This document shows, piece by piece, positions 10,801-37,335 of a DNA stretch of 64,000 nt. The position numbers and the translations under genes were made by a program. The notes beneath the pieces were generated by a model, which searched no databases, had not been told where the DNA came from, and worked only from the letters and a program-made list of their open reading frames with translations. The first letter of the stretch is position 1. Every line of letters starts with the position of its first letter. The DNA lies in the NCBI GenBank assembly GCA_000002445.1, contig CP000067.1:832001-896000 (forward strand). The letters are read 5' to 3'. Source of the stretch: Trypanosoma brucei. Taxonomy: Eukaryota.

Positions 10801-10822
10801 GGTTCGAACCCACGCCCCTAGA

Positions 10823-10861
<39 letters not shown>

Positions 10862-10868: not shown

Positions 10869-10926
10869 ACCACCGCCGGTTTCGCGGGCGAATTTCTGTT
10901 ATAAACTTACTCCCGCAGTAAAAATA

Positions 10927-10999
10927 TGCGATCGGTGAGGCTCGAACTCACGACCTTGGGATTATGAAACCCACGCGCTGCCGACTGCGCCACGCTCGC
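10927..10999 (-). tRNA. tRNA-Met(CAT), elongator-type
   Basis: 73 nt with standard numbering. D-stem GCGC/GCGC; anticodon loop TTCATAA; T-arm GTGAG-TTCGAGC-CTCAC; G1:C72 and T54, so not initiator-like. A T5 run follows downstream. An identical copy lies at 28774-28846. Confidence 0.85.
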
Positions 11000-16109: not shown

Positions 16110-16254
16110 CCCAAGCACTTGTACCACGTAAAAGAGAACTACAGAAAAATACACGTTCTTTAAGAGAAGCACCACACACACACACACGCTAGTAGCGTGA
16201 AACTTACAATTGTAAAAATATTTTAGAAAATTACTAACATTTCCCCACCTATTT

Positions 16255-17439: not shown

Positions 17440-17728
17440 ATCATACTGTTATTCAAGTAAAGACAAATCTTCGCTGACACATTATCAAGGCACCCAAAAA
17501 CATGATATCGCAATGCGACCACACGTAGTCGGCCAGAAGCAGCAATAGCATATAAACACACATTCATATTTGCACATGCACATTCATTTCATGGTTATTG
17601 GACGGTTATTTTATGGTTATTTGCAAGAGGAGGGTGCAGTGAGAGTGTTAATACTGCTGACAGTTGTTGAGGCACAGGGTGTAAAAAGAGAAGGTGAGCG
17701 AAAGAGGCGTGTGTTCTCTTTTTCATTT

Positions 17729-18658
17729 TTAAGCTGTGGATATGGTGATGCTGCTGAAGATTGACTGGAGTTCCTTTTCGAGAGCGTCGATTCTGGAAGT
17801 TTGTTCCAACAGCTTGGAAGGCGTGGCTTCAATTTCGGAGATGATGTCGTTGATTTCTCTTAGAGGTGTGACAAACAACTTGAGAAGCTCTGATGCATTC
17901 ACCTTTTCTACCGAGCGAAGTTTATTCGTTTGGACGTTGTCTTTACCCAAATTGTTCCTTATTCCTCTGTGCTTGAGGACGAGCCCAAGGGAGGTGGACG
18001 CCGTATTGACTTTATCGGCCAATTTGTTTCCCCCATGGCTCTGAAACCCTCCACCGGTAAATGACAAGTCCATATAATCAGCGTCGCTGTCGAAATCGCC
18101 AACAATACCGGAAATATCTTTCCCAACAAAAGTTGTCCCGCACTTGACGTATGCACCATTATCCCCACAATAGCCATGCGACTTATTTACAATACATACT
18201 GCCTCTAATCCAACTCTGTACATCTCCACCATTGTGGCTGCATACCTGGTTCCGGTTCTTACAACATCCATCACCTTTTCCTCCAGATAAGAAACATTAA
18301 GGTTAAATTTCTTCCGTAAGTAGCTTTCACCTTCGAAAACACTCTCCATCTCATTTAATATTTCCTTCATTTTATCACCCTTCTGTTTTTTCATAAATGG
18401 TTTTACGTACACGAATAATCGTTCCCAGGCTGCGTATCTTTCCTCCGCCGAATACCTCTTCTCATACACCTCCTCTGCATGCACTCTAGTTCTTAAAAGT
18501 AGATCCTCCGTCACATTAATCATCCAATTAAGTTTCTTCACGACACAGTCAATTTGGTTAAGAGTTGTCAGTGACTCGTCGTTGTCCGCTTCTGGTGACA
18601 TGTTCTCTGCCAACACAACCCAAACTACAAAAAGCATCACTAGAAGTATCCTTATCAT
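17729..18658 (-). CDS. Array gene B2 (309 aa): signal peptide, no anchor signal
   Basis: MIRILLVMLFVVWVVLA signal. Conserved B-family blocks. C-terminus SIFSSITISTA is not hydrophobic. Confidence 0.75.
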   Translation of the reverse strand: MIRILLVMLFVVWVVLAENMSPEADNDESLTTLNQIDCVVKKLNWMINVTEDLLLRTRVHAEEVYEKRYSAEERYAAWERLFVYVKPFMKKQKGDKMKEILNEMESVFEGESYLRKKFNLNVSYLEEKVMDVVRTGTRYAATMVEMYRVGLEAVCIVNKSHGYCGDNGAYVKCGTTFVGKDISGIVGDFDSDADYMDLSFTGGGFQSHGGNKLADKVNTASTSLGLVLKHRGIRNNLGKDNVQTNKLRSVEKVNASELLKLFVTPLREINDIISEIEATPSKLLEQTSRIDALEKELQSIFSSITISTA

Positions 18659-18779
18659 CCTATAAACTTATTCCACACAAAATCGAACTACAGAAAATAA
18701 TGCCCCTTTCCGGAAAGAGACCACACCGCTAGTAACATGAAGCTGTTATTAAAAATATTTTATAAAATTACTCACTTTC

Positions 18780-19970
18780 TCAACTATTTCCAAATACAAA
18801 TGGGAGAAGAAGCAGAGCCACTCCTAGCAGAGTTTGCTGAACCCTTGCTACACTGTCACTCTCATTACTCTCTTTATCATTCCAATGAATATGTTTCACT
18901 ATTCCTAGTGTTTCTGTAAGTTCATTGGTTGTTTCCTTTTTTTCCAGAATATATCTGACTCTTTCTTCAAGTTCCAGAAGCAACCTATCGAGTACAGCTC
19001 GTTGAGCTGTGATGGAGGTGTTTCCTGCAGATATCTTTATGACGCTGGCACTCAGCAGATCGATTAGTTCCTGAAATTCTTCTCCAATAGAACTGAAGTT
19101 GGCAACGACGTTGTTATTCTGTGTGTAAAAGAGTCCTCCTGAAAGTTCATAAATGAGAGATTTCCTCCCCGAAGTGTAAGACTGATGTGTCGTCGTGATA
19201 TAGCAGCCATACTCCGAGTAGTTTCTGTAGTTTCCTGCATTTCCCATCGTTAAAGTGAGTCCTTCATCAAGAGGGTTTTTGTACTCAGCAAGGCTACCCT
19301 CGCTGCGCTGTAGCGGCTCAACTATGCAGTCTCTGGGAACACTGCCGCGTTTACCGTTCTTCATGCAATCGCCCGTTGCCCCTCCATCCACCACAAGACA
19401 ACAACTTAGAGTGCTAAGTGCCGCGTGGGCAAAACTCTCCACCGTGTCCTTAATCCAGTACGCGTACGAGTCAGACATATTCAGAAGGTTCCACGATGGC
19501 AACCTCATATATCCAAGCGACGAATGCATTTGCGCAACTAAATTTCTTAATTCATCTTTCAGTACTTTCATATCGCTCAAAAGCTTTATTATTTCAGTTA
19601 AAATTTCATCTTCTTCCGGAATTACTTCTTTCAAAACATCCACTAAAATTGTTTTTGTTTGAACACGTGCACTGTAGTGAGCTACAATTTTTTCACAGTC
19701 TTCCACTATTTTCTCCCCGAATTTCATATTATGTGTCACATTGTTCCTCAGTTCCCTCAGCTTCCTAACTATACTACAGATGGCATTTGCATCACTTTGT
19801 GTCAGTGCCTTGCCCTTACCCTTTTCATCACCCTCCGGTCCACTGTTAGCACATGCCACCACCAGAAAACTAAACATAATCACCACTCCTCCAACTGAAA
19901 TCATATTATCACCTTCATACACAAAACAAGCAAAAAGGAGCTTTGAAAGCATGTGCTTCTTATTCCCCAT
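18780..19970 (-). CDS. Array gene A2 (396 aa): predicted GPI-anchored surface glycoprotein
   Basis: The 5' ~400 nt are identical to A1 and A3. The central region is divergent. C-terminus LLGVALLLLPFVFGNS is hydrophobic. Confidence 0.75.
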   Translation of the reverse strand: MGNKKHMLSKLLFACFVYEGDNMISVGGVVIMFSFLVVACANSGPEGDEKGKGKALTQSDANAICSIVRKLRELRNNVTHNMKFGEKIVEDCEKIVAHYSARVQTKTILVDVLKEVIPEEDEILTEIIKLLSDMKVLKDELRNLVAQMHSSLGYMRLPSWNLLNMSDSYAYWIKDTVESFAHAALSTLSCCLVVDGGATGDCMKNGKRGSVPRDCIVEPLQRSEGSLAEYKNPLDEGLTLTMGNAGNYRNYSEYGCYITTTHQSYTSGRKSLIYELSGGLFYTQNNNVVANFSSIGEEFQELIDLLSASVIKISAGNTSITAQRAVLDRLLLELEERVRYILEKKETTNELTETLGIVKHIHWNDKESNESDSVARVQQTLLGVALLLLPFVFGNS

Positions 19971-20259
19971 ATCATACTGTTATTCAAGTAAAGACAAATC
20001 TTCGCTGACACATTATCAAGGCACCCAAAAACATGATATCGCAATGCGACCACACGTAGTCGGCCAGAAGCAGCAATAGCATATAAACACACATTCATAT
20101 TTGCACATGCATATTCATTTCGTGGTTATTGGACGGTTATTTTATGGTTATTTGCAAGAGGAGGGTGCAGTGAAAGTGTTAATACTGCTGACAGTTGTTG
20201 AGGCACAGGGTGTAAAAAGAGAAGGTGAGCGAAAGAGGCGTGTGTTCTCTTTTTCATTT

Positions 20260-21204
20260 TTAAGCTGTGGATATGGTGATGCTGCTGAAGATTGACTGGA
20301 GTTCCTTTTCGAGAGCGTCGATTCTGGAAGTTTGTTCCAACAGCTTGGAAGGTGTGGCTTCAATTTCGGAGATGATGTCGTTGATTTCTCTTAGAGGTGT
20401 AATAAAGGACTTGAATATCCTTGGTGAGTGAACAAACTCTACCAAGCCGTTTCCATTCGTGATGACCTTGGATTTACCCAAGTTACTTCTTATTCCTCTG
20501 TGCTTGATGATGTGCCCATAAGAGGTGGACGCCGCATTAACTTTATCGGCCAACTTGCTGCCTCCGTGTCCGCTCTGCGCTACTTTCTGTGTTTTCCTGT
20601 TTTGGAATGACAAGTCGATGTGTTCAGAGCTGTTTTCCAACACTCTAACGACGTCAGAAATGTCTTTCCCAACAAAAGTTGTCCCGCACTTGACGTATGC
20701 ACCATTATCCCCACAATAGCCATGCGACTTATTTACAATACATACTGCCTCTAATCCAACTCTGTACATCTCCACCATTGTGGCTGCATACCTGGTTCCG
20801 GTTCTTACAACATCCATCACCTTTTCCTCCAGATAAGAAACATTAAGGTTAAATTTCTTCCGTAAGTAGCTTTCACCTTCGAAAACACTCTCCATCTCAT
20901 TTAATATTTCCTTCATTTTATCACCCTTCTCTTTTCTCACAAAGTTTTTTACGTATACGTATAATTCTTTCCATGTTGTGAACCTTTCCTCTAGTGAATA
21001 CTTTTTCCCATACACCTCCTCTGCATGCACTCTAGTTCTTAAAAGTAGATCCTCCGTCACATTAATCATCCAATTAAGTTTCTTCACGACACAGTCGATT
21101 CTTTTTAGAGTAAAGCATGGTTCTCTATAACTCACCTGTGTTCTTCCAGCATATGGCAACACAAAGAAAACGACGGTAACGGTCACTTGACTTATCTTAA
21201 TCAT
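20260..21204 (-). CDS. Array gene B3 (314 aa): signal peptide, no anchor signal
   Basis: MIKISQVTVTVVFFVLPYA signal. Shares the IDCVVKKLNWMINV and DKMKEILNEMESVFEGESYLRKKF blocks. The C-terminus is identical to B2. Confidence 0.75.
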   Translation of the reverse strand: MIKISQVTVTVVFFVLPYAGRTQVSYREPCFTLKRIDCVVKKLNWMINVTEDLLLRTRVHAEEVYGKKYSLEERFTTWKELYVYVKNFVRKEKGDKMKEILNEMESVFEGESYLRKKFNLNVSYLEEKVMDVVRTGTRYAATMVEMYRVGLEAVCIVNKSHGYCGDNGAYVKCGTTFVGKDISDVVRVLENSSEHIDLSFQNRKTQKVAQSGHGGSKLADKVNAASTSYGHIIKHRGIRSNLGKSKVITNGNGLVEFVHSPRIFKSFITPLREINDIISEIEATPSKLLEQTSRIDALEKELQSIFSSITISTA

Positions 21205-21337
21205 TCCACACTCTTACTTCAGGAAAAACTAAGCCAGTTCGAAGAGCGTACCTTTTTTGGAAGGGCACATCGCTTACACGCTAGTAGTAATAAGCTGTCA
21301 ATTGCACAAATATTTTAGAAAATTACACACTTTCCAC

Positions 21338-22525
21338 CTATTTCCAAAATACAGAAAAGACGAAAAGAAGCAGAGCCACTTCTGATAGATTTGGTTTCTT
21401 GCTCATACCATCACTCTCATAACTCTCATTATCATACCAGGAAACATCTTCTATGCTTCCTAATCTTTTCGTAACATCCATGACTCTCTTTTTCCTTTTA
21501 AGGATATCTCCAACTTCTTCCTCAAACCTCAGTAACAAGCTGTGGAGTATAGTTCGTTGACCTGTGATAGATGTGTTCCACGTGAAAATGTCGCTGATAC
21601 TAGTGTTCAGTTGATCGATTAGTTCCTGAAATTCTTTTCCAACAGAACTGAAGTTGGCAACGACGTTGTTATTCTGTGTGTAAAAGAGTCCTCCTGAAAG
21701 TTCATTTATAAAGGATTTCTTTGTATTAAAGCCACCTGCGGTGCTTGTGATGTAGCAACCGTAACTATTTGGGGTTTTACCGTAGTTTCCTGAATTTCCC
21801 ATAGTCAAACTGAGTTCTGTATTAAGAGGATTTTCATACTCAGCAAGGCTACCCTCGCTGTGCTGTGGTGGCTCAACTATGCAGTCTCTGGGAACTATTC
21901 CTCGTTTTCGGTCAAAGGGACAATCTTCCATTGACCCTCCATCTACCACAAGACAGCAACTCCCGGGGCTAAACGCTGCATAGTGAAAAAAATCCACCAT
22001 ATCCTTAATCCAGTACGCATATGAGTCCGATATATTTACAAGGTTCCACGATGGCAACCTCATAGCCCGCAGTGAAGCATTCATGCTCGTAATTGTCTTC
22101 CCTAATCCATCCCTCAGTTCCCCCATCTTCTCCAGGATTCTTTCCATCCCACTGAAACTTGACTTTTCTTCTGCCATTACTTTCTCCAACACGCTCACCA
22201 GCATTTTCTTAGACATAACTTTCGCGCCGTAGTAACTTTTCACGTCTTCAGCCTCGTCCACTATTTTCTCCCCGAATTTCATATTATGTGTCACATTGTT
22301 CCTCAGCTCCCTCAGCTTCCTAACTATACTACAGATGGCATTTGCATCACTTTGTGTCAGTGCCTTGCCCTTACCCTTTTCATCACCCTCCGGTCCACTG
22401 TTAGCACATGCCACCACCAGAAAACTAAACATAATCACCACTCCTCCAACTGAAATCATATTATCACCTTCATACACAAAACAAGCAAAAAGGAGCTTTG
22501 AAAGCATGTGCTTCTTATTCCCCAT
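21338..22525 (-). CDS. Array gene A3 (395 aa): predicted GPI-anchored surface glycoprotein
   Basis: Same N-terminus as A1 and A2. Motif CCLVVDGGSMEDC. C-terminus LSEVALLLFVFSVFWK. Confidence 0.75.
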   Translation of the reverse strand: MGNKKHMLSKLLFACFVYEGDNMISVGGVVIMFSFLVVACANSGPEGDEKGKGKALTQSDANAICSIVRKLRELRNNVTHNMKFGEKIVDEAEDVKSYYGAKVMSKKMLVSVLEKVMAEEKSSFSGMERILEKMGELRDGLGKTITSMNASLRAMRLPSWNLVNISDSYAYWIKDMVDFFHYAAFSPGSCCLVVDGGSMEDCPFDRKRGIVPRDCIVEPPQHSEGSLAEYENPLNTELSLTMGNSGNYGKTPNSYGCYITSTAGGFNTKKSFINELSGGLFYTQNNNVVANFSSVGKEFQELIDQLNTSISDIFTWNTSITGQRTILHSLLLRFEEEVGDILKRKKRVMDVTKRLGSIEDVSWYDNESYESDGMSKKPNLSEVALLLFVFSVFWK

Positions 22526-22813
22526 ATCATACTGTTATTCAAGTAAAGACAAATCTTCGCTGACACATTATCAAGGCACCCAAAAACATGATATCGCAAT
22601 GCGACCACACGTAGTCGGCCAGAAGCAGCAATAGCATATAAACACACATTCATATTTGCACATGCATATTCATTTCATGGTTATTGGACGGTTATTTTAT
22701 GGTTATTTGCAAGAGGAGGGTGCAGTGAAAGTGTTAATACTGCTGATGCTTGTAATTAACATTGGCTCAAAAGGAATTATGTTCACGCATTTTTTTTATT
22801 ATACTGAAGACGC

Positions 22814-23740
22814 TCAAAGGCTGTTAAAGAGGGATTCAAGTTTCTTTTCGAGAATAGAAAACTTGTGAACACGTTCCGACAGCTTGGAAGGTGTGGCTTC
22901 AACTTCGGAGGTGAGATTACCGACTTCCCTTAGATGTGTGACAAACAACTTGAGAAGCTTCGCTGCACTCACGTGTTCTACCAAGTCGCGTTCATCCATG
23001 AGAACTCTGGCCTTTCCCAAACTATTACCTATTCCTCTGTGCTTGATGACACGTCCAAACGTGGTCGATACATTATGAACTCTATCAGCCAGCTTGTTTC
23101 CCCCTTTACTCCAGTGACCTCCGTTCTCAAACCTTAGATCTATATTTTCTTCAGTGCCGCTACCAAATTCAGCAACGATAATAGATAAATTTCCCCCAGA
23201 GAAGGCTCTCTCGCATGTAACATTGGCTTCATAAATTTCACAACTTTTTGGTACTTCTTTTCCAGAACGCACAGCTTCCAATCCAACTCTGTACATCTCC
23301 TCCATTGTGGCTGAATACCTGATACCGACTCTTACAATAGTCATCATTTTTTTTTCAAAGTAAGAAACATTAAGGTTAAAGTTTTTCTGCAAGTAGCTTT
23401 CAGTTTCAACGATTCTCTCCATCTCATTTAATATTTCCTTCATTTTATCACCCTTCTGTTTTTTCATAAATGGTTTTACGTACACGAATAATCGTTCCCA
23501 GGCTGCGTATCTTTCCTCCAGCAAATACTTCTTTTTATATACCTTTTCTGCATGCACTCTAGCTCTTAAAAGTAGATCCTCCGTCACATTAATCATCCAA
23601 TTAAGCTTCTTCACGACACAGTCAATTTGCTTAAGAGTTGAGAGAGATTCATCTCCGTGTGTTGTTTCCGCTATAACCCCCCAAAAAACAACTAGAACAA
23701 CTAAAGTGACAGCAAACACCACCTGAATCATCCTCATCAT
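22814..23740 (-). CDS. Array gene B4 (308 aa): signal peptide, no anchor signal
   Basis: MMRMIQVVFAVTLVVLVVFWGVIA signal. Conserved B blocks with a more divergent C-terminal half. Confidence 0.7.
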   Translation of the reverse strand: MMRMIQVVFAVTLVVLVVFWGVIAETTHGDESLSTLKQIDCVVKKLNWMINVTEDLLLRARVHAEKVYKKKYLLEERYAAWERLFVYVKPFMKKQKGDKMKEILNEMERIVETESYLQKNFNLNVSYFEKKMMTIVRVGIRYSATMEEMYRVGLEAVRSGKEVPKSCEIYEANVTCERAFSGGNLSIIVAEFGSGTEENIDLRFENGGHWSKGGNKLADRVHNVSTTFGRVIKHRGIGNSLGKARVLMDERDLVEHVSAAKLLKLFVTHLREVGNLTSEVEATPSKLSERVHKFSILEKKLESLFNSL

Positions 23741-23870
23741 ATGTACCTATTCCACGAAAAGCGAATCACAGGAAAACGTGTAGCCTTTAGTAAGGGTACA
23801 ACACACGCGGTAGTAGAACATAATTGTCGTCTGTATAAATATTTTAGATCACTTACTTCTCCACATACTT

Positions 23871-25019
23871 TTAGAAGAATACCAGGAAGAATAGAAACAG
23901 ACTCACCCCTCGGAGGGTTGGTTGCGTCCCCATACCATCGCTATTCCCACTCTCGTTACCAAACCATGGAATGTTCTTCGTGCTACCTAATGCTTCCGTA
24001 ATTGCTTTGTTCTTTTCTTTCTCAAGGACATGTCTGATTTCTTTCTTCAGCTTAAGTAGCAAACCATCGAGTACAGCTCGTTGTCTTGTAATTGATGTGT
24101 TCCACGCGGAAAAATTGTTTGTGACTCTTCTTAGCGGATCGATTAGCTCCTGAAATTCCTTTCCAACAAAAGTGAAGTTGGCCATAAGTCTGTTATTCTG
24201 TGTGTAAAAGAGGCCACCAGAAAGTTCATAAATGAGAGATTTTTTCCCCCTGCTGTAAGTGTCATTTGTTGTTGTGATGAAGCAGCCACATAGCGGGTAT
24301 TCGCCTTCGTCCCCTGCATTTCCCATCGTTAAAGTGAGTCCTTCATCAAGAGGGTTTTTGTACTCAGCAAGGCCACCCTCGCTGCGCTGTGGCGGGTAAA
24401 TAGTGCAATCCGTGGGGACACTGCCGCGTTTACCACCTCTTATGCAATCTCCCGTTGCCCCTCCATCCACCACAAGACAACAATTCCCGCTTCCGAATGC
24501 TGTCTGGGCAAAGAGTTCTACCATATCTTTCACCCAGTACGCATACGAGTCAGACATATTTGTGAGGTTCCACATTTGCACACTCATGCACCCGAGTGAA
24601 GCGTTCACATTCGTAATACTTCTTTTCAACACCTGGATCGGCTCCTCCATATCACTCAGCAGCTTTCCCATCACGCTCAACTTTTCTCCTTCTTCAGGAA
24701 TTAGTTTTCCCAAAACCTTCACTAACATTTTCTTTGCTTCAACACGTGTGCTGTAGTAAGTAGCAACGTTTTCGCCATTGTCCACGATTTTTTCACCCAA
24801 TTTCATATTACGCGTCACGTTATTTGCCAACTCCCTCAACTGTTTGACCACATTGCAAATGGCATCTGCATCACTTTGCGTCAGCGCCTTGCCCTTACCC
24901 TCGATGTCACCCTCCGCTTGACCGTAAGCACATACCACCACTAAACAAGCCACAACCATTCCCCTTTTGAGTGGCATCATATTATCCCCTCCTTCCAGAA
25001 ACGCAAGAAAGGCAAACAA
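23871..25019 (-). CDS. Array gene A4 (382 aa): divergent A-type predicted GPI-anchored surface glycoprotein
   Basis: Different signal peptide (MMPLKRGMVVACLVVVCAYG), but it shares ALTQSDADAICNVVKQLRELANNVT, CCLVVDGGATGDCIRGGKRGSVP and the ELSGGLFYTQNN blocks. C-terminus LRGVSLFLFFLVFF. Confidence 0.7.
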   Translation of the reverse strand: MFAFLAFLEGGDNMMPLKRGMVVACLVVVCAYGQAEGDIEGKGKALTQSDADAICNVVKQLRELANNVTRNMKLGEKIVDNGENVATYYSTRVEAKKMLVKVLGKLIPEEGEKLSVMGKLLSDMEEPIQVLKRSITNVNASLGCMSVQMWNLTNMSDSYAYWVKDMVELFAQTAFGSGNCCLVVDGGATGDCIRGGKRGSVPTDCTIYPPQRSEGGLAEYKNPLDEGLTLTMGNAGDEGEYPLCGCFITTTNDTYSRGKKSLIYELSGGLFYTQNNRLMANFTFVGKEFQELIDPLRRVTNNFSAWNTSITRQRAVLDGLLLKLKKEIRHVLEKEKNKAITEALGSTKNIPWFGNESGNSDGMGTQPTLRGVSLFLFFLVFF

Positions 25020-25092
25020 ATTGTGGATCCCTACGTGCGTATTCAGTCGGAGAACAGATCTTGATTACAATAAGTAGAACATTTGGGCTATA

Positions 25093-26325
25093 TTACGAAA
25101 ACACCAACAAAACAAAAATGCTCACCATTAAATCGAAATGGGCATCACCCTCCGTGTCAACATCCAAATTTTCTGCCTTGCCCCAGATATCTATGTTTCC
25201 TCCAAGTTTGTACTCAAGAAACATTTCCTCAGCGTCATGCTGTAAATCTTCCAACTCGTAAATATGGGAGTTTGCTTCACTTTCATACTTCTCCATGTCT
25301 TCCATGTTCTTTGTGGCATTGGTGAGACGATTGTGCCACGGTATGCCGCCATGGGATAAGGTGTGTTTGTAATTCACACACGTTGTTCCGGGTCTGTGGC
25401 CATCACATAGAAATGTTTCATTACTCGTATCATTCACGTGGCCAAATACGCCTTCCACCTGAAACTTGTCCTGCCTCATGTTAACAGATTTATCAAACTC
25501 CTCCAATGCAGCCTTTAACAGCTTTGAGTTGGATGCAATGTGCCTGTACACGCATCCGCGCTTTACCACTTGCCAAGCATCTTTGAGTGTCATTGATGAA
25601 TTAACCTCACATTTCTCTTCGGCCAAGGCGCACTCATTGCTCATGCCCGTCCACTTATTTTTTTCTGGTCGCCTCAAGTAGGTCCTGCAGGGCGAACTAT
25701 GCCCGTTGTAATAGTAGCTGCTGCTGTTCGCCTCGTCTTTCGCCTCTCCCACACATACACAAAAAAAGTCGTTAACAAGTGTTTTTCCAGTTTCATTACC
25801 GTTGCTTCCACAGCTTTCCAGAGCAGATTCATTGCTGTTGAACAGTAAACTTTTATTAGTTTCCATAATATCGTCAATGGGTCTGTTGGTCTTATGTGCC
25901 TCATCCACTAAATCACCATACACAGCTTTCATCATGCTCTCCTCAGCCTTACTGCTCTCCCGCATCGCCCTCTTTCTATTCCTGTCAATCTCTCCCTTCA
26001 CCGCTTTTGCTCTTTTGTATAGTTTCTCAATCCCTTCACGCGCCTTTTGGCTCACAGAAGTTTCTTTTCCGTTCGCTCTCGCCTCACTCACCATTACCTC
26101 GAACCTCTTCATAATCTCATCTTCCTTCTCACGGTTTCTAAATTCCGGCCTTGGCACCTTTGCTTGAGTGATCCTGTAAATCTTACAAAGGATCTCAAAC
26201 TCTCCGGTGTTGTGTTGGTAATCAGTAATGTTGAAAACACCCTTCTGTTGACCCTGACTTCCTCTTATTGATCCCCATAAAAGAGCAACCAACAATAGCA
26301 CCCCAGCGCAACCACGTCTCTTCAT
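25093..26325 (-). CDS. Gene C1 (410 aa): predicted GPI-anchored, Cys-containing, charged helical surface protein; paralog of C2
   Basis: Signal MKRRGCAGVLLLVALLWGSIRG. Motifs LVNDFFCVCVGE and CVNYKHTL are shared with C2. Multiple NxS/T sites. Hydrophobic C-terminus LMVSIFVLLVFS. Confidence 0.7.
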   Translation of the reverse strand: MKRRGCAGVLLLVALLWGSIRGSQGQQKGVFNITDYQHNTGEFEILCKIYRITQAKVPRPEFRNREKEDEIMKRFEVMVSEARANGKETSVSQKAREGIEKLYKRAKAVKGEIDRNRKRAMRESSKAEESMMKAVYGDLVDEAHKTNRPIDDIMETNKSLLFNSNESALESCGSNGNETGKTLVNDFFCVCVGEAKDEANSSSYYYNGHSSPCRTYLRRPEKNKWTGMSNECALAEEKCEVNSSMTLKDAWQVVKRGCVYRHIASNSKLLKAALEEFDKSVNMRQDKFQVEGVFGHVNDTSNETFLCDGHRPGTTCVNYKHTLSHGGIPWHNRLTNATKNMEDMEKYESEANSHIYELEDLQHDAEEMFLEYKLGGNIDIWGKAENLDVDTEGDAHFDLMVSIFVLLVFS

Positions 26326-26435
26326 AATTTCCTATTACAACCAAATGGGAAGCAAATATCAACAACATGCCACGCAGCAGCAGTCATTTAGGAAAATGCG
26401 GAAGCTGGGAAAAGCTAAAAATATAACACGGAAAG

Positions 26436-27767
26436 TTAAGCGACAAAGGCAGTCAGCGCCATCATTGCTAAAACAGTCAAAGATATTGAAAAGCCGGCCC
26501 CATCCTCTTCCACCTCGTTCACTTCACTCTCCATCATTAAGTGTTCCAAATTCAAGTTAATCTTTGCTGCTGCACTTTTCATATTCTCCGCTAATTTCCA
26601 CAGCCTTCCAAGCAAAACCTTTGCCTCCTTATTGTGCCTTTCCATTTCCACCAGGTACTTCTCCGCATCCAGCAACCTCAGCTGCCACTCAATTCCCTTC
26701 TGCGTCAGAAGTCTATACGCATAATTCACGCACATTTGGTCATTCTTCCCCGTGCATATGTTTTCGCTGCGGTCAAAAACACCCGTATGTATTTTTTTTG
26801 CTCTCCCAAACACGTAGGTCCGAAATCCCTCCGATTCTTTCATGTTCATGATTATATTCTCCCTCTGCCTTCCAAGAAGCTTATTGAACTCCCTCACTGC
26901 ATCTTGGATTTTTTCTGGCGTTATCAATTTCAAATTTTCATTTTTTGGACAGGCTTCATCCTTTATCTTAAACCAGCCGGGGCCAAAAGCCACATCACTT
27001 CCATCATACGACACATTTTTCCACAGTTTCTTTCTACCCGGCCCCTTGATACTTTTGTGACAAACGGTCTCATTATTCTCTTCTCCAACGCACAAGCAAA
27101 AAAAGTCCCCCACGAGCGAACGCCCAGCCATGGCATCCTCAGTCGAGGGATGATACCCAGCTCCGCACGTTTCCTCTGCGGAGTTTCCTATTAAAGTGTC
27201 TCCGGTGTGCACCGCAAACTTTTCAAACTCCTCCTTCTCCATCAGCCTCCCAGCATTCGCCCCATAAACGACTTGCGCCATTCTTTCGAGTGCAAATTTC
27301 CTTGACACATTCGCCAGGCGCCGTTCCTCTCTTATTCCACTCACGAGTATGGTTGCCTTTTCCGCTAGTTTTATTAACTTCTCATGTGTTACCCTCCACC
27401 GAATAATATCATTTGCACGATGCATACTCATCTTAGCGGCCCCACTATTGTTAACTGTTCCTTTCCTCCTTTCCATAGCTTCTTTATACAAGGAATCCTT
27501 CACGTATGTCGCTTTCACAAACATCTGTAGCCTGTCGATGATACTCGTTAGATTCGCAGGCTCTTCCATTATTTTCTCTGGTTCCCCCTCCGCCAACCTC
27601 AATATCTCACACATTTGGTTGAACTCTTTTTCATTCACTAACTTTGAATCCTCTCCACACACCAAGTGGAAGGCACCAAAGGCCGTTAACAAGAATGTCA
27701 CTATGATTTCCTTCATTATCAAAGCCCTGCTACAAACAAAAAGAAAGTAAAGGCACCAACAAGACAA
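26436..27767 (-). CDS. Gene C2 (443 aa): predicted GPI-anchored surface protein; paralog of C1
   Basis: The probable start is the internal MKEIIVTFLLTAFGAFHLVCG signal at 27716. Motifs LVGDFFCLCVGE and CVNYAYRL. Hydrophobic C-terminus SLTVLAMMALTAFVA. Confidence 0.7.
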   Translation of the reverse strand: MSCWCLYFLFVCSRALIMKEIIVTFLLTAFGAFHLVCGEDSKLVNEKEFNQMCEILRLAEGEPEKIMEEPANLTSIIDRLQMFVKATYVKDSLYKEAMERRKGTVNNSGAAKMSMHRANDIIRWRVTHEKLIKLAEKATILVSGIREERRLANVSRKFALERMAQVVYGANAGRLMEKEEFEKFAVHTGDTLIGNSAEETCGAGYHPSTEDAMAGRSLVGDFFCLCVGEENNETVCHKSIKGPGRKKLWKNVSYDGSDVAFGPGWFKIKDEACPKNENLKLITPEKIQDAVREFNKLLGRQRENIIMNMKESEGFRTYVFGRAKKIHTGVFDRSENICTGKNDQMCVNYAYRLLTQKGIEWQLRLLDAEKYLVEMERHNKEAKVLLGRLWKLAENMKSAAAKINLNLEHLMMESEVNEVEEDGAGFSISLTVLAMMALTAFVA

Positions 27768-28605
27768 TCCTCCAACCAGAAGATGCTCCTAATCGCAGAT
27801 AAAAGAGATCACTTTTGTAACGCAAGAAAAGCATCCAAAGCCACCAACCGAGCATCCCAACCGTCATACAAACGTATTTCCGAATGGCCAAACCACCGTA
27901 ATTTTAAAAATCTCTCACACATTCACGATTGAACACTATACGTGATAAAAAAAGCGTGCTCTGATTTAAGCCTTCCCAATGCATTGCTGAGCCCACGCAC
28001 GGCCCCTCTCAACCTTAACGCGCAGTTTTTCACGGAGTGAAACCAACCAAAAAAGCAAGCAGGTCACAGCTTTTTTAATGTCTTCACGCGCAGGCAGCTT
28101 ATATATAATTACTGCGGCAAAGAGAGGAACAGAGTAATGGAAAGTATTTAAAGGATCACAGACAAAAAGAAGCAGAACAAACCTGAACGTTATTCCGTGG
28201 TTACTGCCTTGTGGGGAAAGAGGGCCGCGGCATGGGAAAGCGCTTTAATTCAGGTCTCGGCGCCACACGGAACTGCAGAGGCTCACGCGCCAATGAGTGG
28301 CGACAAACCGACTGACAGCGATATCACACTTCTGAACTTCCTTTTCCTTTGTGGTGAGTGCCCTGAGGCTCATCCTCCGTTTTTCTCCTGAAGCTTCCCC
28401 GAATCAATTTTATCCTCCTTAACAGCGATGAAGCAGCGGAGTTATGCGCAATAGACAACCGCTGCGGGAGCGGCGAAACATTGAAATGTCCTCGACAGAG
28501 GATACTGGCACGGCAGCTGCAACGGTCGGCAAGTTCCAAAACTCATCGTCTTGGACCGTTCTCTCGAGTAACGTGCCCGTCGCCGCATCAAGCACGTTGA
28601 CCTCT

Positions 28606-28612
28606 AAAAAAA
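28606..28612 (-). terminator. RNA polymerase III T7 terminator for tRNA-Glu
   Basis: An A7 run on the plus strand immediately 3' of the minus-strand tRNA. Confidence 0.6.
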
Positions 28613-28614
28613 GT

Positions 28615-28686
28615 TTCCGGTGCCGGGGATCGAACCCGGGTCTAGCGGGTGAGAGCCGCTTGTTCTAGCCACTATACCACACCGGA
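28615..28686 (-). tRNA. tRNA-Glu(CTC)
   Basis: 72 nt. Acceptor stem TCCGGTG/CACCGGA; anticodon arm AGCGG-CTCTCAC-CCGCT; T-arm CCGGG-TTCGATC-CCCGG. A T7 run follows on the minus strand (28606-28612). Confidence 0.9.
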
Positions 28687-28773
28687 GATGCATCTCGTCA
28701 AATCTACACTTACGTTCTAAACCATAAGTTGTGATGCAGACGTTCATAATTTACTATCGAGCGGCCCCGCACC

Positions 28774-28846
28774 GCGAGCGTGGCGCAGTCGGCAGCGCGT
28801 GGGTTTCATAATCCCAAGGTCGTGAGTTCGAGCCTCACCGATCGCA
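28774..28846 (+). tRNA. tRNA-Met(CAT), elongator-type, second copy
   Basis: Sequence identical to the 10927-10999 copy, in opposite orientation. Divergent from tRNA-Glu, 87 bp away. T6 run at 28848-28853. Confidence 0.85.
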
Positions 28847-28847
28847 C

Positions 28848-28853
28848 TTTTTT
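28848..28853 (+). terminator. RNA polymerase III T6 terminator for tRNA-Met
   Basis: A T6 run begins 2 nt after the discriminator base. Confidence 0.6.
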
Positions 28854-28889
28854 GATTTCCACCTGCGAGTTTTTCAGCAGGAGAAAACC

Positions 28890-28970
28890 CGTCGACAGCA
28901 GGGTTCGAACCTGCGCGCGAGATCGCATTTGATTTCAAGTCAAACCCCGTAACCACTTGGGTATGTCGAC
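28890..28970 (-). tRNA. tRNA-Ser(TGA), type II
   Basis: 81 nt. Acceptor stem GTCGACA/TGTCGAC; anticodon arm TTTGA-CTTGAAA-TCAAA, which pairs perfectly; 13-nt variable arm; T-arm GCAGG-TTCGAAC-CCTGC. A T4 run follows downstream. Confidence 0.8.
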
Positions 28971-29011
28971 AACGGTTTACCCGACTATTTCAAACTAATA
29001 AAAAAACAGAT

Positions 29012-29733
29012 CCACCACCGTCAGTCGTTTTCGTGTTTAAATCAATTGAACTGAGGAAATGATACAAAAATTGCCGGAGCGGGCAAGCGCTGATGGTCTA
29101 GGTGGTTATGACGTCGCTTTAACACGGCGAAGGTCTCGGGTTCGAGTCCCGATCGGCGTAGGTTTTCGTCATTTCTCCGTTTCCCTCAATTTTGCTGCCG
29201 TGAAATTTTAATGTTCGGATGAAAGGGGAAGAGGGATTGAGATTGTGCGTGTGTGTGTGGCCTGAGGTGGTGACATTTGGGACGGAAACGAATGAAAGGA
29301 AAAGGGGTCGCTGTTTTAGTTACTAATGAAGCAGCATATCCATTATTCATTACATCGAGAGTAACATCCCCATCAACTAAAACGTGAGTCAGTGGACGGC
29401 TCGTCTCTTTTTGCTCTTTGCCTTGCTTTGCTTTTTCTTTTATTGGGTTGGTTGAGAAAGCAATGCTAAAATACCAGAAAGGCAGGGAGAGGATGACCCC
29501 CATACCAACAGAGTTCAAACATCACCTCACGAGGCTGCAATGTGTGGCGGGGTGTTGCGGTGCTGCTGCAAACATTCCATCAAATGCCCCACTGGTCATT
29601 ATAAAAGAGGAAGGTATTGGACCCGTGCTGTCATGGGAAACTGGAACTGGGCTGGGAAAGGAACAGTGACAGGAGGAAAAATAAGGGAAAACAAATGTGT
29701 GCAATATGTCCTTTTTTTTCATGGTTTTGGAGA
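29012..29733. repeat. Inverted repeat, right arm (722 bp), containing tRNA-Val and a 12-nt relic of the tRNA-Leu 3' end
   Basis: CCACCACCGTCA (T-stem plus acceptor 3' strand of tRNA-Leu) is retained at 29012-29023, but the rest of the gene is absent. Homology then continues through tRNA-Val to 29733. Confidence 0.85.
29087..29160 (+). tRNA. tRNA-Val(AAC), second copy inside the inverted repeat
   Basis: Identical to the 10652-10725 copy. A T4 run follows immediately. Confidence 0.9.
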
Positions 29734-30493
29734 AGAAGAGTGTTTGTGATAATACTGGAACCGTTGCACCACACCAAAGGGACACCGGCAGCAATATTAC
29801 ATGCTACGAAGGCTTTGCACACGCCTTGCGCTGTTCTAAACGCTACGCGCGCCCTTGACTTCAGGGAAGGGAATGGAAGGGGAAAATGAAGAAACGATCT
29901 TCCCAAAGTCAATTAAGCGTTACGCCCTCGGTCGCATCCATGAGCCTTTCACTCCAATTGCCAACAACAACGGCTAACAACATCCTCATTACGACATTGT
30001 ATTGCTTTGCCTTTTAGGGGAGAGAGTTGATTTTCTTCCCGCGTGCGCGAATAATGCACATCCGCGCGGAGGCATCTTTACCGTTCCAAAAGCAAAAAAA
30101 AAAGATGAGTAAAAGAGGAGACGAAAAGAATAGAAGCAGAAAAGTGAAGTTGGGGTGTGAAAAGGTGCTATGAACAAACTTCATCCACTTCAGCTGGCGC
30201 AGCGTGAAAAAATTTACATTCACCCCACGTGACTTCTCACTTTCTGTTGGCCAAATTATTGCATCCGGTTAGAAAGAAACCAGGTGTATCGCACACACGC
30301 GCTCGCACAAGAAACACGCAATCACCAACACGCGGCTACGCACACGTCACTCACGAAGAGAGCATCAGCTATTCAAAAAAAAAATAATAATAACAATAAT
30401 AATTAAATGGAGGATACGAACTTGAAGTCCACCGCCAGATCCCATCCTTTTAGTACCCAACCACACACACGGATTCACAAGCACACACTCTCC

Positions 30494-32662
30494 TTAGCTC
30501 TCCAGATAAGTGCGGAACTCTTTTGTCATGACAGGACGGTCGCCAAGTAAAAGCCAAAGCTCGTGCGCTGTAAGTGTCTCTTGTCTTGCCAAAAGGCCCG
30601 CCAGTGCACGCACCTCCCTAAGATATTGTTTTAATATGGACCGCGCCCTGTTGAGCGCCTCGGTGATGAGCTTGTGAACGGCCTCATCCACAATATCCTC
30701 CTTTAATGGTCCAAACGGTTTCTGAATGCTGTCTTCCTGGTCTAAGTTGTAACCAAAGTGACCAATATTCTCGGGATCCATCCCGTATGTGCAGACCACC
30801 TGTCGCGCCCTGTTTGTAGCATGCTGCACATCATCTGCAGCAGATGTTGAGACGTCCTTAAAGAAGTACTCCTCCGCTACGTAGCCTCCCAACTGTGCCA
30901 CCATACCTTGCATGAGTTGTTCCTGCGTCGAAATAAAAGCGGTTTGAGGCAACTTTTGGGTTACGCCGGAGCGATGCTGCCCACGAGGAAGGATAGTGGT
31001 TTTGATGACGGGATCGGTTTTCTCTTGAAACCAATGAAGAACGACCTTACCCGCTTCATGAAATGAAATGCGCTCCCGCTCTGCATCGCTCAGCTTCACT
31101 GCACTCTTCTCCAATCCAACTAGCACTCGGTCCACTGCTTGGTGGAAATGGCGTGTTGAGACGTATTCCTTTCCCTCCCTCGCGGCTTGGATAGCGGCCT
31201 CGTTGCAAATGTTAAATATATCCGCACCACTGCATCCAGGGGTAAGCGCGGCGACGGTTTCTGCGAAGCCCCGAATAGTTCCCGACGGCTCAAGCTTAAG
31301 TGGAGCCAAGTGAACCTCGGCGATGGCAACCCTATCCTTATGTGAAGGTTTTTCCAGCGTTATCTTTCGGTCGAAACGCCCGGAGCGCGTGAGGGCGTTG
31401 TCGAGAATGTCGGCACGATTAGTGGCTGCCAGTACCATTATTCCTGTGGAATCCTTGAAACCATCCATTTCAGAAAGAAACGCATTCAGCGTACCTCGCA
31501 GGCTCCCTCCGGAGTCGGATTTTCTTTTCCTCCCGAAGGCATCGATTTCATCCACAAAAACGACGCACGGCTTGCACTCGTGAGCTTGTTTGAAGAGTTC
31601 CCGAGCACGCTGCGCTCCAACGCCGACGTACACTTCCTCAAACTCACTTCCAGAACAACTGAGAAAAGGAACCATGGCCTCACCAGCAATGGCTTTCGCG
31701 AGAAGTGTTTTCCCCACACCAGGTGGCCCGTCAAGCAGAACGCCTTTGGGAAGTTTGGCCCCAAGTGCCTGGTAGCGGCTGGGGTTCTTCAAGAAATCAA
31801 TCACTTCAACCACCTCGTGTTTTGCCTCAGTTAACCCCGCCACATCACTTAGCCGAGTGGCAACGGAAAGTTCACGCTTGAATGAATAACTACTCTTCTC
31901 TGCCGTGAGGGATGCGAGCCTGGCCGATGTGTTAAATAAGGAATGCGTTAGGGCCAAAAGGGGCAGGAGACAAAGGAGTAACATAGGCACCCATGGGTAA
32001 TACGTTTGGATTCCAACGAGTATATCCTTGTTACTATCACATGAAGCTTCAAAAGCCCTGTAATCTACGAAGTTCCGTACGCCAAGAGCCTCGCCCTTTT
32101 GCCCACGGAAGACCGCCCTGTGTCCCGCCAAATCCACTTCCACAGTGGTATAGCCACTGATGTCCCCTTCTGCGCGCGAATGCAAAAAGTAAAAGCGCAC
32201 CGCCATCGTGACTCCAAACAAACACGAAAAGATGACCAACATCCGTACACGTCTCGCCTTGCGTGCCTTGGCTGAAATAATGGCTATGAGCATACGCTCG
32301 TCAGAAGACATTGCGTAGGCACGATTCACAGATTCCGAAGAAGGGCGTGAAAATGGAAGCCTCCGCAGTAACGACACCGAGTAAAATGCCTCAAAACCTT
32401 TGGGGTAGCGTTTCTCAGATGAGAGCCCCGGCGCGCGCCCGACAGCGGCATTGCTATCACTGGTGTTGGTATTGCTGGTATTGTTGTTGCTTCTGGACTT
32501 TGAGGAAACACCTCCTGCAACTGTTGCCTTCTCGCCCTCCTTCGGTGCGTCGGCCTTTCCGTCACTATTGCTGCCAGTTGCACAAAAACACTTGGATGTT
32601 TGAAGGGCCGCCGCGGCAAATGACAAGTGGGCTGATCGGGGTATCCTAAACATATTGTACAC
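30494..32662 (-). CDS. FtsH-family AAA+ membrane protein (mitochondrial-type) with a degenerate zinc-binding motif
   Basis: Two N-terminal TM helices. Walker A GPPGVGKT, Walker [10 protein letters not shown], second region of homology ATNRADILD. The protease-domain motif reads FHEAGKVV where canonical FtsH has HEAGH. Confidence 0.85.
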
Positions 32663-35234: not shown

Positions 35235-35280
35235 TTCACTAAGCTTCCCGCTACTGCAATATATAAATTATACCAATACA

Positions 35281-35326
35281 CACAAACACACACACACATA
35301 TACACAGAAAGAGAGAGAGAGAGAAA
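35281..35326. repeat. Compound (CA)n/(GA)n microsatellite in the SET-UPRT intergenic region
   Basis: cacaaacacacacacacatatacacagaaagagagagagagag. Confidence 0.8.
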
Positions 35327-37335
35327 AAAAAAAACGGAGAAAAAAAAAAAGAGAAAAAGTGTGTGTCTCATTTTCGGAAGTCGCAGATAATTGAGGGACG
35401 TTACAAATGTCATGAGAAGTGGTAAAGTCAAATGAGCATCCCCATGCAATACTTTTAACGGAAAATAATAACAACGCGTACATTACACATACAAAACATA
35501 CACACACACACACACACTTACACATATACGCGCGCACGCACAGATACGTATACGTTTTAAATGTGGCACGACCCCACTCAGAACCTTTTTTTTTCCTTTG
35601 AAAAGGGAAAACGAAACAAAAAAAAAAGAGTAAAAAAATTTATGGGGAATGAAAAACCCGCACACGCAAGCCTTTTCACTTCTCCCCGTACGTGGCCTCA
35701 CACGCACAGAGATGAAATAAAATAAAATAAAGATGGAAATGGAAATAGAAATGGAAATGGAACTACTGCAGACTACGAAGTGCTGAAAGCCGAAAGAATA
35801 AAGGGAGGAGTGATGATGTCTCCACCATTCATTCTTTTTTTAATGTATATATTTTTTATATCTTTTTTTTCCCCCTTTTAAAAGAGAAAAAAAAAAAGAG
35901 GAGCACAATTCATATCACAATCCATTTCCCGGGGGCCCCACACCATAAGAAGTTCGTAGTTGATCATTCGGTTGCTCAGCGGCGTCGGCGATACAAATTA
36001 AAGGAAATTAAAACAAAGAAAGAAAAAGAAAAAGAAAAATAAGGAAAAAAGAAGAAACATGTCAGAAAAGAAGCAGGTTCTGCTTATGAGTATTATGACC
36101 TTCCACTATGCGTATATATTTATGTAAGTATATATGTAAGTGCGTGTGTGTGCTTGTGTGCATTTTTTTCTTTTCTTTTTCTTTTTTTTTTATTTTTTGT
36201 GTCCTGTTGTTGCTTGTCCGTTGTTGTACAGTTTCCCGTAATGATGTTGAGGGGGAAATAAATTATGAAAAGGAATTTAAAAAAAGAAAAAAAGAAAAAC
36301 GGGGGCAAAAAGAACTGGCGCGCGGTAACAGGAGACATAAACGTAAGGAAGGGGAAAGAAAGAGACGGAGAATGGAAATTAATAATAATAATAATAAACA
36401 GTCGCTCGTTGAACCTTTCGCACAACTAAACGTCATCACCACTTCTTTCTTGTTTCTTTTTATTTTGTTTTATTCACGTAAACAAAACTTTAAAAAAAAC
36501 GAAAAGAGAAGAGAAGAAAAAAGGAAAAAGAGGGAAAAACAAAAAAAAGGGGGGGAAGGAGTGGTAGCGCGTAATTTTTTTTAAAAAAAAAACTTTGGCT
36601 AACGGTCATGTCGGGCCTCACCGTAGTCACGGCCAAATAAAAAGAAAAAAAAACAATAAAAACAAGATAAACTTTTTTCTCTTCAATAAAGAAGAAAAAT
36701 AAAGAGGAGGAATGGAGTGAAGTGAAACTTATATCCATCTCTACGTTTTGGCCACTCGTTGAACACACTTTTTTTTTTGTTTAAAACACAGACACATAAA
36801 TGCCTACCACCTCCCTCTACAAATACACACATATATAAATAAACATATATGAATATATATATATATATGTATGTTAAATCTCACATGTGTGCAACTGCGT
36901 GCTGTAATCACTTCCACTCACACGTCAAAATTCCCACCATTCTCTTTTTTTTCCCCCTTTTTCGTTCCCCTTCCTTCTTTTGTTGTTTCCTTCATTGTCG
37001 TTTTGTTATCTTGTTATCTTGTCTTGTCTTGACTTGACTTGACTTATCATGTTTCTTTTTGTTGTTGTTTTTTTTTTGGGGGGGGGGGTTTCGTTTTTGT
37101 TTTCATTCTTTCCATTTTTTTTTAATTCTATTTTTTCTTTTTTCGTATTCTTTTTCTTTTTCTTAATTTCCTCTCTTTCCTAACAAAAACTCTTTTTTTC
37201 TATGTACAGAGGCAATATGCCATATCTTTCTTCTTTATATATATATATATATATATTTATTTATTTAATTTATTTTTTATTTATTGACCTCCACTTCAAT
37301 TTTTTTTTTTCACTTCGCTTCCCATTTGCGCTCGC

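Follow-up and report, generated by a model that had tools for sequence, protein, structure and literature searches.

Does RNA polymerase II stop at a group of tRNA genes that lies inside a run of same-strand protein genes, and does it start again behind them? This question is raised by a 64,000 nucleotide stretch of Trypanosoma brucei DNA (the window), which matched gene identifiers and coordinates place on TREU927 chromosome 4 at about 832,001-896,000. An earlier note on this DNA proposed that four tRNA genes interrupt a unidirectional run and that the surface-gene array behind them is a separately initiated transcription unit. Our analysis favours another answer: the site is probably an ancient convergent termination zone into which the array was inserted in the T. 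brucei lineage, and the array, for which no separate start of transcription could be detected, appears silent or nearly so in cultured procyclic forms.

The tRNA genes, the array and its spacers

The cluster is located between the FtsH gene (Tb927.4.3300), whose stop codon is 1.3 kb away, and the array, which begins with Tb927.4.3290 and runs to.3200. Two methods, ARAGORN and Rfam, agree on four tRNA genes in mixed orientation (-,+,-,+) at this place (Table 1). Their Rfam RF00005 scores are 55-60 bits compared with a gathering score of 29 (E <=3e-9), and a run of four to seven T follows the 3′ end of each gene on its own strand. tRNA-Glu(CTC) is the member closest to the array; its transcription points at the array and its run of seven T is found at 28606-28612. 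Apart from the four tRNAs, a permissive Rfam scan of positions 27000-31000 returned a single chance match below threshold, and no snRNA, 7SL RNA or other Pol III partner. The surroundings are also as the earlier note described them: all long ORFs from 15180 to about 63.4 kb, among them FtsH with its end at 30494, are on the minus strand, and another tRNA cluster and a strand switch are present to the left of the array. This left cluster is scored "no TTR" in the Lister 427 annotation, which is odd.

The array consists of four copies of a gene pair, a hypothetical gene (~310 aa) and an ESAG11-related gene (~395 aa), followed by two further genes, here called C1 and C2. Its copy number differs among strains, and a homologue search with C2 matched T. 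brucei-group proteins only. For C2 and C1 dN/dS is about 0.24 and the ORFs are intact in several subspecies; judged from these comparisons both genes are under purifying selection. C2 has a canonical polypyrimidine tract and AG splice acceptor on the minus strand, ~14 nt upstream of the ATG. Because of the purifying selection, the intact ORFs and the splice acceptor of C2, the two genes probably have a stage in which they are expressed.

In the annotation C2 starts with the ATG at 27716 and not with a TTG at 27767, and therefore the non-coding interval between C2 and tRNA-Glu extends from 27717 to 28614 (898 bp). The earlier note had given it as an ~830 bp, GC-rich stretch at 27768-28600; it is indeed non-coding, the bounds had to be moved, and the GC-richness is marginal. 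The GC content of 27768-28600 is 0.485 compared with 0.467 for the whole window, and twelve other intergenic regions of the minus-strand unit have 0.34-0.48, four of them 0.475-0.477. A GT-rich sense strand is a feature of dispersed promoters (Wedel 2017). The sense strand of the 898 bp spacer contains 57.7% G+T, mid-range among the twelve ordinary intergenic regions (52-64%). Searches with blastx and blastn, in which the two spacers (0.9 kb and 4.2 kb) and the two 3′ flanks were compared with the array proteins and the window, revealed no relics and no repeats. The proposed promoter or initiation region is thus a stretch of ordinary composition, unique within the window and free of coding relics of array genes, and the proposal finds no support here.

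The same spacer could hold a procyclin-like or expression-site-like promoter, which would make the array a Pol I unit. The sole argument for this, a circumstantial one, is the presence of ESAG2-like and ESAG11-related genes, whose expression-site relatives are transcribed by Pol I. Rfam and blast found no repeat or recognisable element in the spacer and procyclic cells yielded no array transcripts (Kolev 2010), and we regard a Pol I unit as very improbable.

Table 1. Features of the locus (positions in the window; a dot marks features given without strand)
Feature	Position	Strand	Remarks
Ubiquitin-conjugating enzyme (UBC), Tb927.4.3190	8584-9246	+	last gene of unit Tb927.4.2100 to.3190
Left arm of 0.72-kb inverted repeat	10093-10800	.	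holds tRNA-Val(AAC) 10652-10725 (-)
Second tRNA cluster, Val/Leu/Met	10652-11000	-	ARAGORN
Second tRNA-Val(AAC)	10652-10725	-	inside left inverted-repeat arm; identical to right-arm tRNA-Val
tRNA-Leu(TAG)	10788-10869	-	left cluster; ARAGORN and Rfam
tRNA-Met(CAT)	10926-11000	-	left cluster; ARAGORN and Rfam
4.2-kb spacer	11001-15179	.	left tRNA cluster to last array gene; without long ORFs; unique in window
Ten-gene array, Tb927.4.3200-.3290	15180-27716	-	
C1, ESAG2-like	25093-26325	-	
C2 (Tb927.4.3290), VSG_B-domain	26436-27716	-	
Non-coding spacer, tRNA-Glu to C2 ATG	27717-28614	-	898 bp; candidate promoter of the earlier note
tRNA-Glu(CTC)	28615-28686	-	ARAGORN and Rfam RF00005
tRNA-Met(CAT)	28774-28847	+	ARAGORN and Rfam RF00005; divergent partner of tRNA-Glu
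tRNA-Ser(TGA)	28889-28971	-	ARAGORN and Rfam RF00005
Right arm of 0.72-kb inverted repeat	29012-29718	.	tRNA-Val and about 560 bp on FtsH side
tRNA-Val(AAC)	29087-29160	+	ARAGORN and Rfam RF00005; antisense to incoming FtsH unit
FtsH/AFG3-type mitochondrial metallopeptidase, Tb927.4.3300	30494-32653	-	last gene of unit Tb927.4.3740 to.3300

Origin of the layout and the inverted repeat

In T. theileri the gene order is FtsH(+), Val-aac(-), Met(-), Glu-ctc(+), Met(+), Ser-tga(-), Leu-tag(+), followed by the UBC and lipase orthologues (-). The order in L. donovani is FtsH(+), Val-aac, Ile, Met, Leu-tag, Ser-tga, then lipase(-), and at the two loci lipase and UBC orthology was confirmed at 46-53% identity. 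Thus, in the outgroups T. theileri and Leishmania, FtsH and the lipase/UBC unit are directly convergent, with one cluster of the same tRNAs between them. This shows that the array was inserted in the T. brucei lineage and that the convergent strand-switch region which received it is older. The T. vivax contig ends after FtsH, Val-aac(-) and Ser-tga(+); the contigs of T. vivax, T. grayi and T. rangeli stop 0.3-2.1 kb past FtsH. Synteny of chr04-III with L. major chr34-I has already been published.

To say that the tRNA genes interrupt a unidirectional run is therefore misleading, and the unidirectional run at the array is, as far as gene order tells, secondary. The useful outcome is this correction: what looked like a run interrupted by tRNAs is an old convergent end colonised by ESAG-like genes. 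The tRNA-Leu and tRNA-Met of the left cluster make up the second half of the tRNA cluster that occupied the ancestral strand switch.

The array is enclosed by a 0.72-kb inverted repeat with tRNA-Val, and the two arms of the repeat evolve in concert in each genome, which is a new observation. The arms are 99.4% identical (the match in the self-comparison is 680 nt at 99%), and arm identity is 98.1-99.9% within a genome and 95.4-97.1% between genomes. A further inverted repeat (80 nt, 98%) connects tRNA-Met at 28774-28847 with the Met gene at 10920-10999. The adjacency of FtsH and Val(AAC) is kept in T. vivax, T. theileri and L. donovani, and the right arm is probably the ancestral copy.

Taken together, the history of the locus is probably as follows. 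An ancient tRNA cluster lay in a convergent strand-switch region, and the Glu/Met/Ser/Val genes are its half on the FtsH side, where Pol III-occupied tRNA genes and the surrounding chromatin would halt Pol II coming in from the Tb927.4.3740-.3300 unit, presumably as a roadblock. In the T. brucei lineage the ESAG-like array was inserted into this termination zone, at a point between tRNA-Glu and the second tRNA-Met, its orientation being the same as that of FtsH by chance. It is now flanked by two Pol III-bound tRNA sub-clusters, inside an inverted repeat kept uniform by gene conversion. The array appears silent or nearly so in cultured procyclic forms and probably is in bloodstream forms too, and any expression would come from leaky read-through or belong to an unsampled life-cycle stage.

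Pol II termination and transcription of the array

The earlier note took the cluster as a mark of Pol II termination, and published annotation and factor binding at the orthologous cluster of Lister 427 support this. There, the Glu-ctc/Met-cat/Ser-tga/Val-aac cluster (Chr4_core 780197-780742) overlaps cTTR_70, one of the convergent Pol II termination regions (cTTR) of the 427 annotation, and is scored "yes" for all eight RNAPIII/TTR factors, TBP, BDF7, ELP3b, PHD2, PHD4, TFIIS2-2, DOT1A and TRF (Staneva 2021, Table S8). The units mapped by Kolev run from Tb927.4.2100 to.3190 (plus strand) and from Tb927.4.3740 to.3300 (minus strand), the latter thus ending at FtsH (Kolev 2010, Table S14). Since the 427 site is labelled convergent and not single (head-to-tail), no minus-strand unit was recognised downstream of it. 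An inversion of the array in Lister 427 was considered as the reason for this label and rejected; tRNA order and spacing match 927. The boundary alone adds little: that tRNA genes delimit Pol II transcription in trypanosomes is textbook knowledge, and this very cluster already has an entry among the termination regions.

Separate initiation of the array, the second part of the proposal, finds no support in the procyclic data. Genome-wide mapping of 5′-triphosphate RNA revealed no unit starting at Tb927.4.3290 (Kolev 2010). Table S14 of that study has an explicit "next to tRNA" class, used three times on chromosome 4, and assigns no transcription unit to Tb927.4.3200-.3290 in procyclic forms. 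All ten array genes are without detectable transcript in these cells (Table S2), and there are no splice-acceptor entries between.3190 and.3300. These results come from one stage, procyclic T. b. rhodesiense YTat1.1, with short reads mapped onto the 927 reference, and reads may be undercounted at the array because strains differ by 3-5% in this region and some of it is repetitive. The supplements of Nilsson 2010 and Siegel 2010 contain nothing on the array genes.

A model in which Pol II stops at the tRNAs and restarts in the 0.9-kb spacer, and so transcribes the array as a separate unit that may be confined to unprofiled stages (tsetse epimastigote or metacyclic, in vivo bloodstream), has well-established general precedent. 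In L. major, peaks of acetylated H3 have been published downstream of tRNA clusters inside gene clusters, and the intact, selected array genes with the splice acceptor of C2 would fit as well. Against it are the lack of an array unit and of array transcripts in procyclic forms, the convergent label in 427 and the ordinary G+T and GC content of the spacer. Indirect evidence comes from a tsetse/bloodstream RT-PCR survey, which detected 21 of 25 candidates: Tb927.4.3290 is named only in its in silico candidate table and is absent from those expression-table passages that a text search retrieved. Taking both sides together, we consider re-initiation in the spacer unlikely.

The array could also be the distal end of the FtsH unit, with an internal terminator formed by tRNAs, H3.V and base J and with expression set by read-through. 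It lies on the FtsH strand and is silent in wild-type cultures, and VSGs, ESAGs and hypotheticals with very low normal expression are frequent among the genes regulated by H3.V/base J (Reynolds 2016). Knock-down of the termination factor PNUTS by RNAi raised the 427 orthologue of C2, which adjoins tRNA-Glu, 3.2-fold (log2FC 1.69), one of only three Chr4_core genes up at least 3-fold; however, at q = 0.30 the effect lacks significance and no other array gene appears in the list, which leaves this response as a weak hint of leakiness. Moreover, synteny shows that the site was a convergent and not an internal end, in agreement with the 427 annotation, and this explanation too appears unlikely.

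Bracketed as it is, the array may be pictured as a tRNA-insulated, potentially invertible cassette with a cryptic, stage-specific Pol II or Pol I promoter in the 0.9-kb spacer, which might fire only in unsampled stages, for example tsetse salivary-gland or early mammalian forms. We think this improbable; if true, it would be a rare case in which T. brucei regulates a chromosome-internal surface-gene cluster at the level of the promoter. For the favoured reading, an insertion into an old termination zone, the point that stands out is that the array genes now lie in a silent pocket yet are under purifying selection. The timing and route of array transcription, if shown, would bear on transcription-level control of core-chromosome gene clusters.

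Comparison with known systems

In T. brucei, tRNA-associated RNAPII termination regions were reportedly described by Siegel in 2009, and as at the present locus Pol III genes are located at the ends of polycistronic units. Chromosome 3 of L. major, with a tRNA gene at a convergent region, is a comparable system. Published analysis places 34.6% of the T. brucei tRNA loci in convergent strand-switch regions, and 20 termination regions overlap tRNA or snRNA genes (Staneva 2021). The locus described here differs in that surface-protein genes, inserted as a segment of 12-18 kb, divide the convergent region; termination would therefore occur at two sub-clusters, with silent genes between them.

With the head-to-tail "next to tRNA" boundaries (Kolev 2010) the locus shares the layout of an upstream unit, a tRNA cluster and same-strand genes, whereas no initiation or unit is reported downstream here and the downstream genes are without detectable transcript. 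Base J/H3.V-dependent repression at the ends of units (Reynolds 2014, 2016; Kieft 2020) likewise concerns silent ESAG/VSG-like genes distal to a termination site; at the present locus there is a hint of de-repression upon PNUTS depletion, but it is statistically unsupported.

Species-specific "disruptive" insertions of surface genes occur at synteny breaks on trypanosomatid core chromosomes, and the T. brucei ESAG-like array resembles them. In T. cruzi, GP63 genes or fragments are found just downstream of the orthologous FtsH gene. In the literature examined we found no description of a homogenised, tRNA-bearing inverted repeat around a surface-gene insertion. The T. brucei array differs from the other disruptive insertions in being bracketed by such a repeat, which provides a small but concrete example of how recombination shapes a strand-switch region.

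Termination and proposed re-initiation at the right tRNA cluster

The window corresponds to about Tb927_04_v4:832,001-896,000 on chromosome 4 of T. brucei brucei TREU927 (927); Tb927.4.3290 is listed at 859716-858436 on this chromosome (Kolev et al., 2010, Table S2). The four tRNA genes reported in the earlier note between FtsH and the surface-gene array were recovered by both ARAGORN and Rfam (55-60 bits; gathering score, 29). Each of the four is followed by a T-run, and a permissive Rfam scan of 27-31 kb found nothing beyond them. The second cluster on the far side of the array was also confirmed, as was the minus-strand-only gene run, since every long ORF from 15180 to ~63.4 kb lies on that strand. 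An intergenic region of unusual length (2.1 kb; 35235-37335) separates the SET/TPR gene from the next gene on the minus strand; it is AT-rich (GC 0.337) and contains a lone plus-strand ORF of 158 aa (36108-36584).

Features of the tRNA clusters, the array and the adjacent FtsH gene (positions within the window)
Feature	Gene	Position	Strand	Description or method
Left cluster Val-AAC/Leu-TAG/Met-CAT		10652-11000		ARAGORN
Array, pair copies (4x)	Tb927.4.3200-.3290 (whole array)	15180-24980	-	hypothetical (~310 aa) + ESAG11-related (~395 aa)
C1	Tb927.4.3280	25093-26325	-	ESAG2-like; follows the four pairs
C2	Tb927.4.3290	26436-27716	-	VSG_B-domain protein, predicted GPI-anchored; after the four pairs
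tRNA-Glu(CTC)		28615-28686	-	ARAGORN, Rfam
tRNA-Met(CAT)		28774-28847	+	ARAGORN, Rfam
tRNA-Ser(TGA)		28889-28971	-	ARAGORN, Rfam
tRNA-Val(AAC)		29087-29160	+	ARAGORN, Rfam
FtsH	Tb927.4.3300	30494-32653	-	described as mitochondrial zinc metallopeptidase

The earlier note proposed that Pol II terminates at this cluster and re-initiates downstream of it, with the spacer between tRNA-Glu and C2 as candidate promoter. Published data support termination. In strain Lister 427 (427) the convergent RNAPII termination region cTTR_70 overlaps the orthologues of the four tRNA genes (Chr4_core 780197-780742), and every RNAPIII/TTR-associated factor (TBP, TRF, BDF7, ELP3b, PHD2, PHD4, TFIIS2-2 and DOT1A) has a "yes" score at these genes (Staneva et al., 2021, Supplemental Table S8). 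The left cluster (767118-767466 in 427) is bound by these factors too, yet overlaps no annotated termination region (Staneva et al., 2021). Genome-wide mapping of 5'-triphosphate RNA in procyclic forms defined chromosome 4 units from Tb927.4.2100 to.3190 (plus strand) and from Tb927.4.3740 to.3300 (minus strand), the latter ending at FtsH (Kolev et al., 2010, Table S14);.2110-.3190 was independently treated as a clean unit (Kelly, 2012). The right cluster is a genuine Pol II termination site, already annotated and ancient.

Re-initiation fared differently. Table S14 contains no unit for.3200-.3290 in procyclic forms, and its "next to tRNA" class is applied three times on chromosome 4. All ten array genes are listed among annotated ORFs without detectable transcript in these cells (Table S2), and the splice-site table has no entries between.3190 and.3300 (Kolev et al., 2010); reads at the array are subject to mapping limits, the segment being divergent and repetitive. 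In bloodstream forms, only three Chr4_core genes are listed with mRNA increases of 3-fold or more after PNUTS RNAi; among them is the C2 orthologue Tb427v9_000847500, which lies next to tRNA-Glu (log2FC 1.69, q = 0.30; Kieft et al., 2020, S4 Table), a result suggestive of de-repression at most. For cultured procyclic or bloodstream forms, the available data thus support neither a separately initiated unit nor a promoter at 27.7-28.6 kb, and the earlier interpretation was half right.

The spacer and the array genes

C2 had been taken to start at 27767. The annotated start is 27716, which gives a spacer of 898 bp (27717-28614). Its description as GC-rich was not borne out: GC is 0.485 over the interval originally proposed, against 0.467 for the window and 0.34-0.48 for twelve other intergenic regions of the same unit. 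The sense strand has 57.7% G+T, mid-range among ordinary intergenic regions of this unit (52-64%). Between 927 and T. b. gambiense the spacer is 96.5% identical, so its conservation does not exceed that of the neighbouring C2 coding sequence (97.0%). It has no second copy within the window and no coding relics of array genes. A polypyrimidine tract and an AG lie on the minus strand ~14 nt upstream of the C2 ATG, so C2 could be trans-spliced if transcribed.

The nearest relative of C2 beyond its own orthologues is an ESAG2 (47% identity). Its dN/dS is ~0.24 between 927 and T. b. gambiense or T. b. equiperdum, and that of C1 is ~0.25 between 927 and T. b. equiperdum. Such purifying selection implies expression at some time; it is the main evidence against a permanently silent array and does not indicate the route of transcription. 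Both 927 and T. b. equiperdum have an intact C1, but in T. b. gambiense DAL972 the gene is frameshifted (L006:11392-12624), with many stops past about residue 225.

The number of pair copies is four in 927, ~2 in T. b. gambiense and ~3 in T. b. equiperdum; in megablast matches, the repeat units of the latter two are only ~72-77% identical to those of 927. The tRNA clusters are 12.7 kb apart in 427 versus 17.6 kb in 927, from which we infer ~2 pairs in 427, two fewer ~2.5-kb repeat units. In the 4.2 kb between the left tRNA-Met and the last array gene (11001-15179), no ORF exceeds 132 aa, and the sequence neither resembles the array nor recurs inside the window; T. b. gambiense shares a conserved part of this stretch (~93-94%).

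An inverted repeat around the array

A near-perfect inverted repeat encloses the array (10121-10800 versus 29012-29691; 680 nt, 99%), with full arms of 0.72 kb reaching ~10093 and ~29718 (10093-10800, 29012-29718). The tRNA-Val(AAC) copies in the two arms are identical, and the converging units both cross the same ~560 bp before they reach an antisense tRNA-Val. Both T. b. gambiense and T. b. equiperdum have the repeat as well. Arms of the same genome are 99.4% (927), 98.1% (T. b. gambiense) and 99.9% (T. b. equiperdum) identical, while any arm is 95.4-97.1% identical to an arm of another genome. This points to concerted evolution by ongoing gene conversion across 12-18 kb. Exchange between the arms could also invert the 18-kb array segment. 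A possible inversion and loss of repeat units have been reported for T. evansi, with the flanking tRNA genes flagged as a possible source of assembly artefacts (Carnes, 2015).

Comparison of 927 with T. b. gambiense or T. b. equiperdum shows a steep increase in divergence at the edge of the arm (~29718; region considered, through 26436). Identity to T. b. gambiense is 99.6% in the FtsH coding sequence, 98.1% in its 3' flank, 94.8% in the arm and 97.0% in C2; dS is 0.078 for C2 versus 0.016 for FtsH. This increase could reflect old haplotypes, or else more frequent mutation or recombination within the termination zone. In the literature examined, the one point for which no description was found is the homogenised inverted repeat, with its tRNA genes, that flanks the silent ESAG-like cassette.

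An ancestral convergent strand-switch region

FtsH orthologues and their flanks were compared across trypanosomatid genomes. Upstream synteny (CARME, EF-hand, UPRTase, SET, FtsH) is kept in all loci compared. T. theileri has just one tRNA cluster after FtsH(+), in the order Val-AAC(-), Met(-), Glu-CTC(+), Met(+), Ser-TGA(-), Leu-TAG(+); beyond it, on the minus strand, lie the orthologues of Tb927.4.3190 (UBC, 53% identity) and Tb927.4.3170 (lipase, 49%). L. donovani has FtsH(+), Val-AAC(-), Ile, Met, Leu-TAG, Ser-TGA and a minus-strand lipase orthologue (46% identity); T. vivax has FtsH, Val-AAC(-), Ser-TGA(+) and then the contig end. In the same orientation T. brucei reads FtsH(+), Val(-), Ser(+), Met(-), Glu(+), array, Met(+), Leu(+), Val(+), UBC(-). 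The outgroup order thus shows that the two T. brucei clusters were once a single ancient cluster at a convergent strand switch, now in two halves, with the array between Glu and the second Met. The tRNA genes had been said to interrupt a unidirectional run; this appearance is secondary, because the array was inserted into a convergent region. The cluster (chr04-III) has been described as syntenic with L. major chr34-I, and convergent regions hold 34.6% of T. brucei tRNA loci (Padilla-Mejía, 2009).

Of the two arms, the right one is the original copy, because a tRNA-Val next to FtsH is the ancestral arrangement. The inverted Met-Glu-Met layout is already present in T. theileri, so the inverted Met pair that now flanks the T. 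brucei array is ancestral as well. The two T. theileri tRNA-Met genes around tRNA-Glu form a 136-nt inverted repeat (88%; L004:14166-14724), and a third tRNA-Met lies between the UBC and FHA genes (L004:16962-17034).

Three independent draft assemblies, of T. vivax, T. grayi and T. rangeli (L003, L010, L011), end 0.3-2.1 kb past the FtsH stop, which suggests repeats or assembly-breaking sequence after FtsH in several species. T. cruzi has no tRNA within 10 kb downstream of its FtsH orthologue; GP63 (Peptidase_M8) genes or fragments lie just downstream on the same strand (L001:15331-21802, L002:17659-19290). In this species, the same break in synteny has been occupied by surface genes of a different family.
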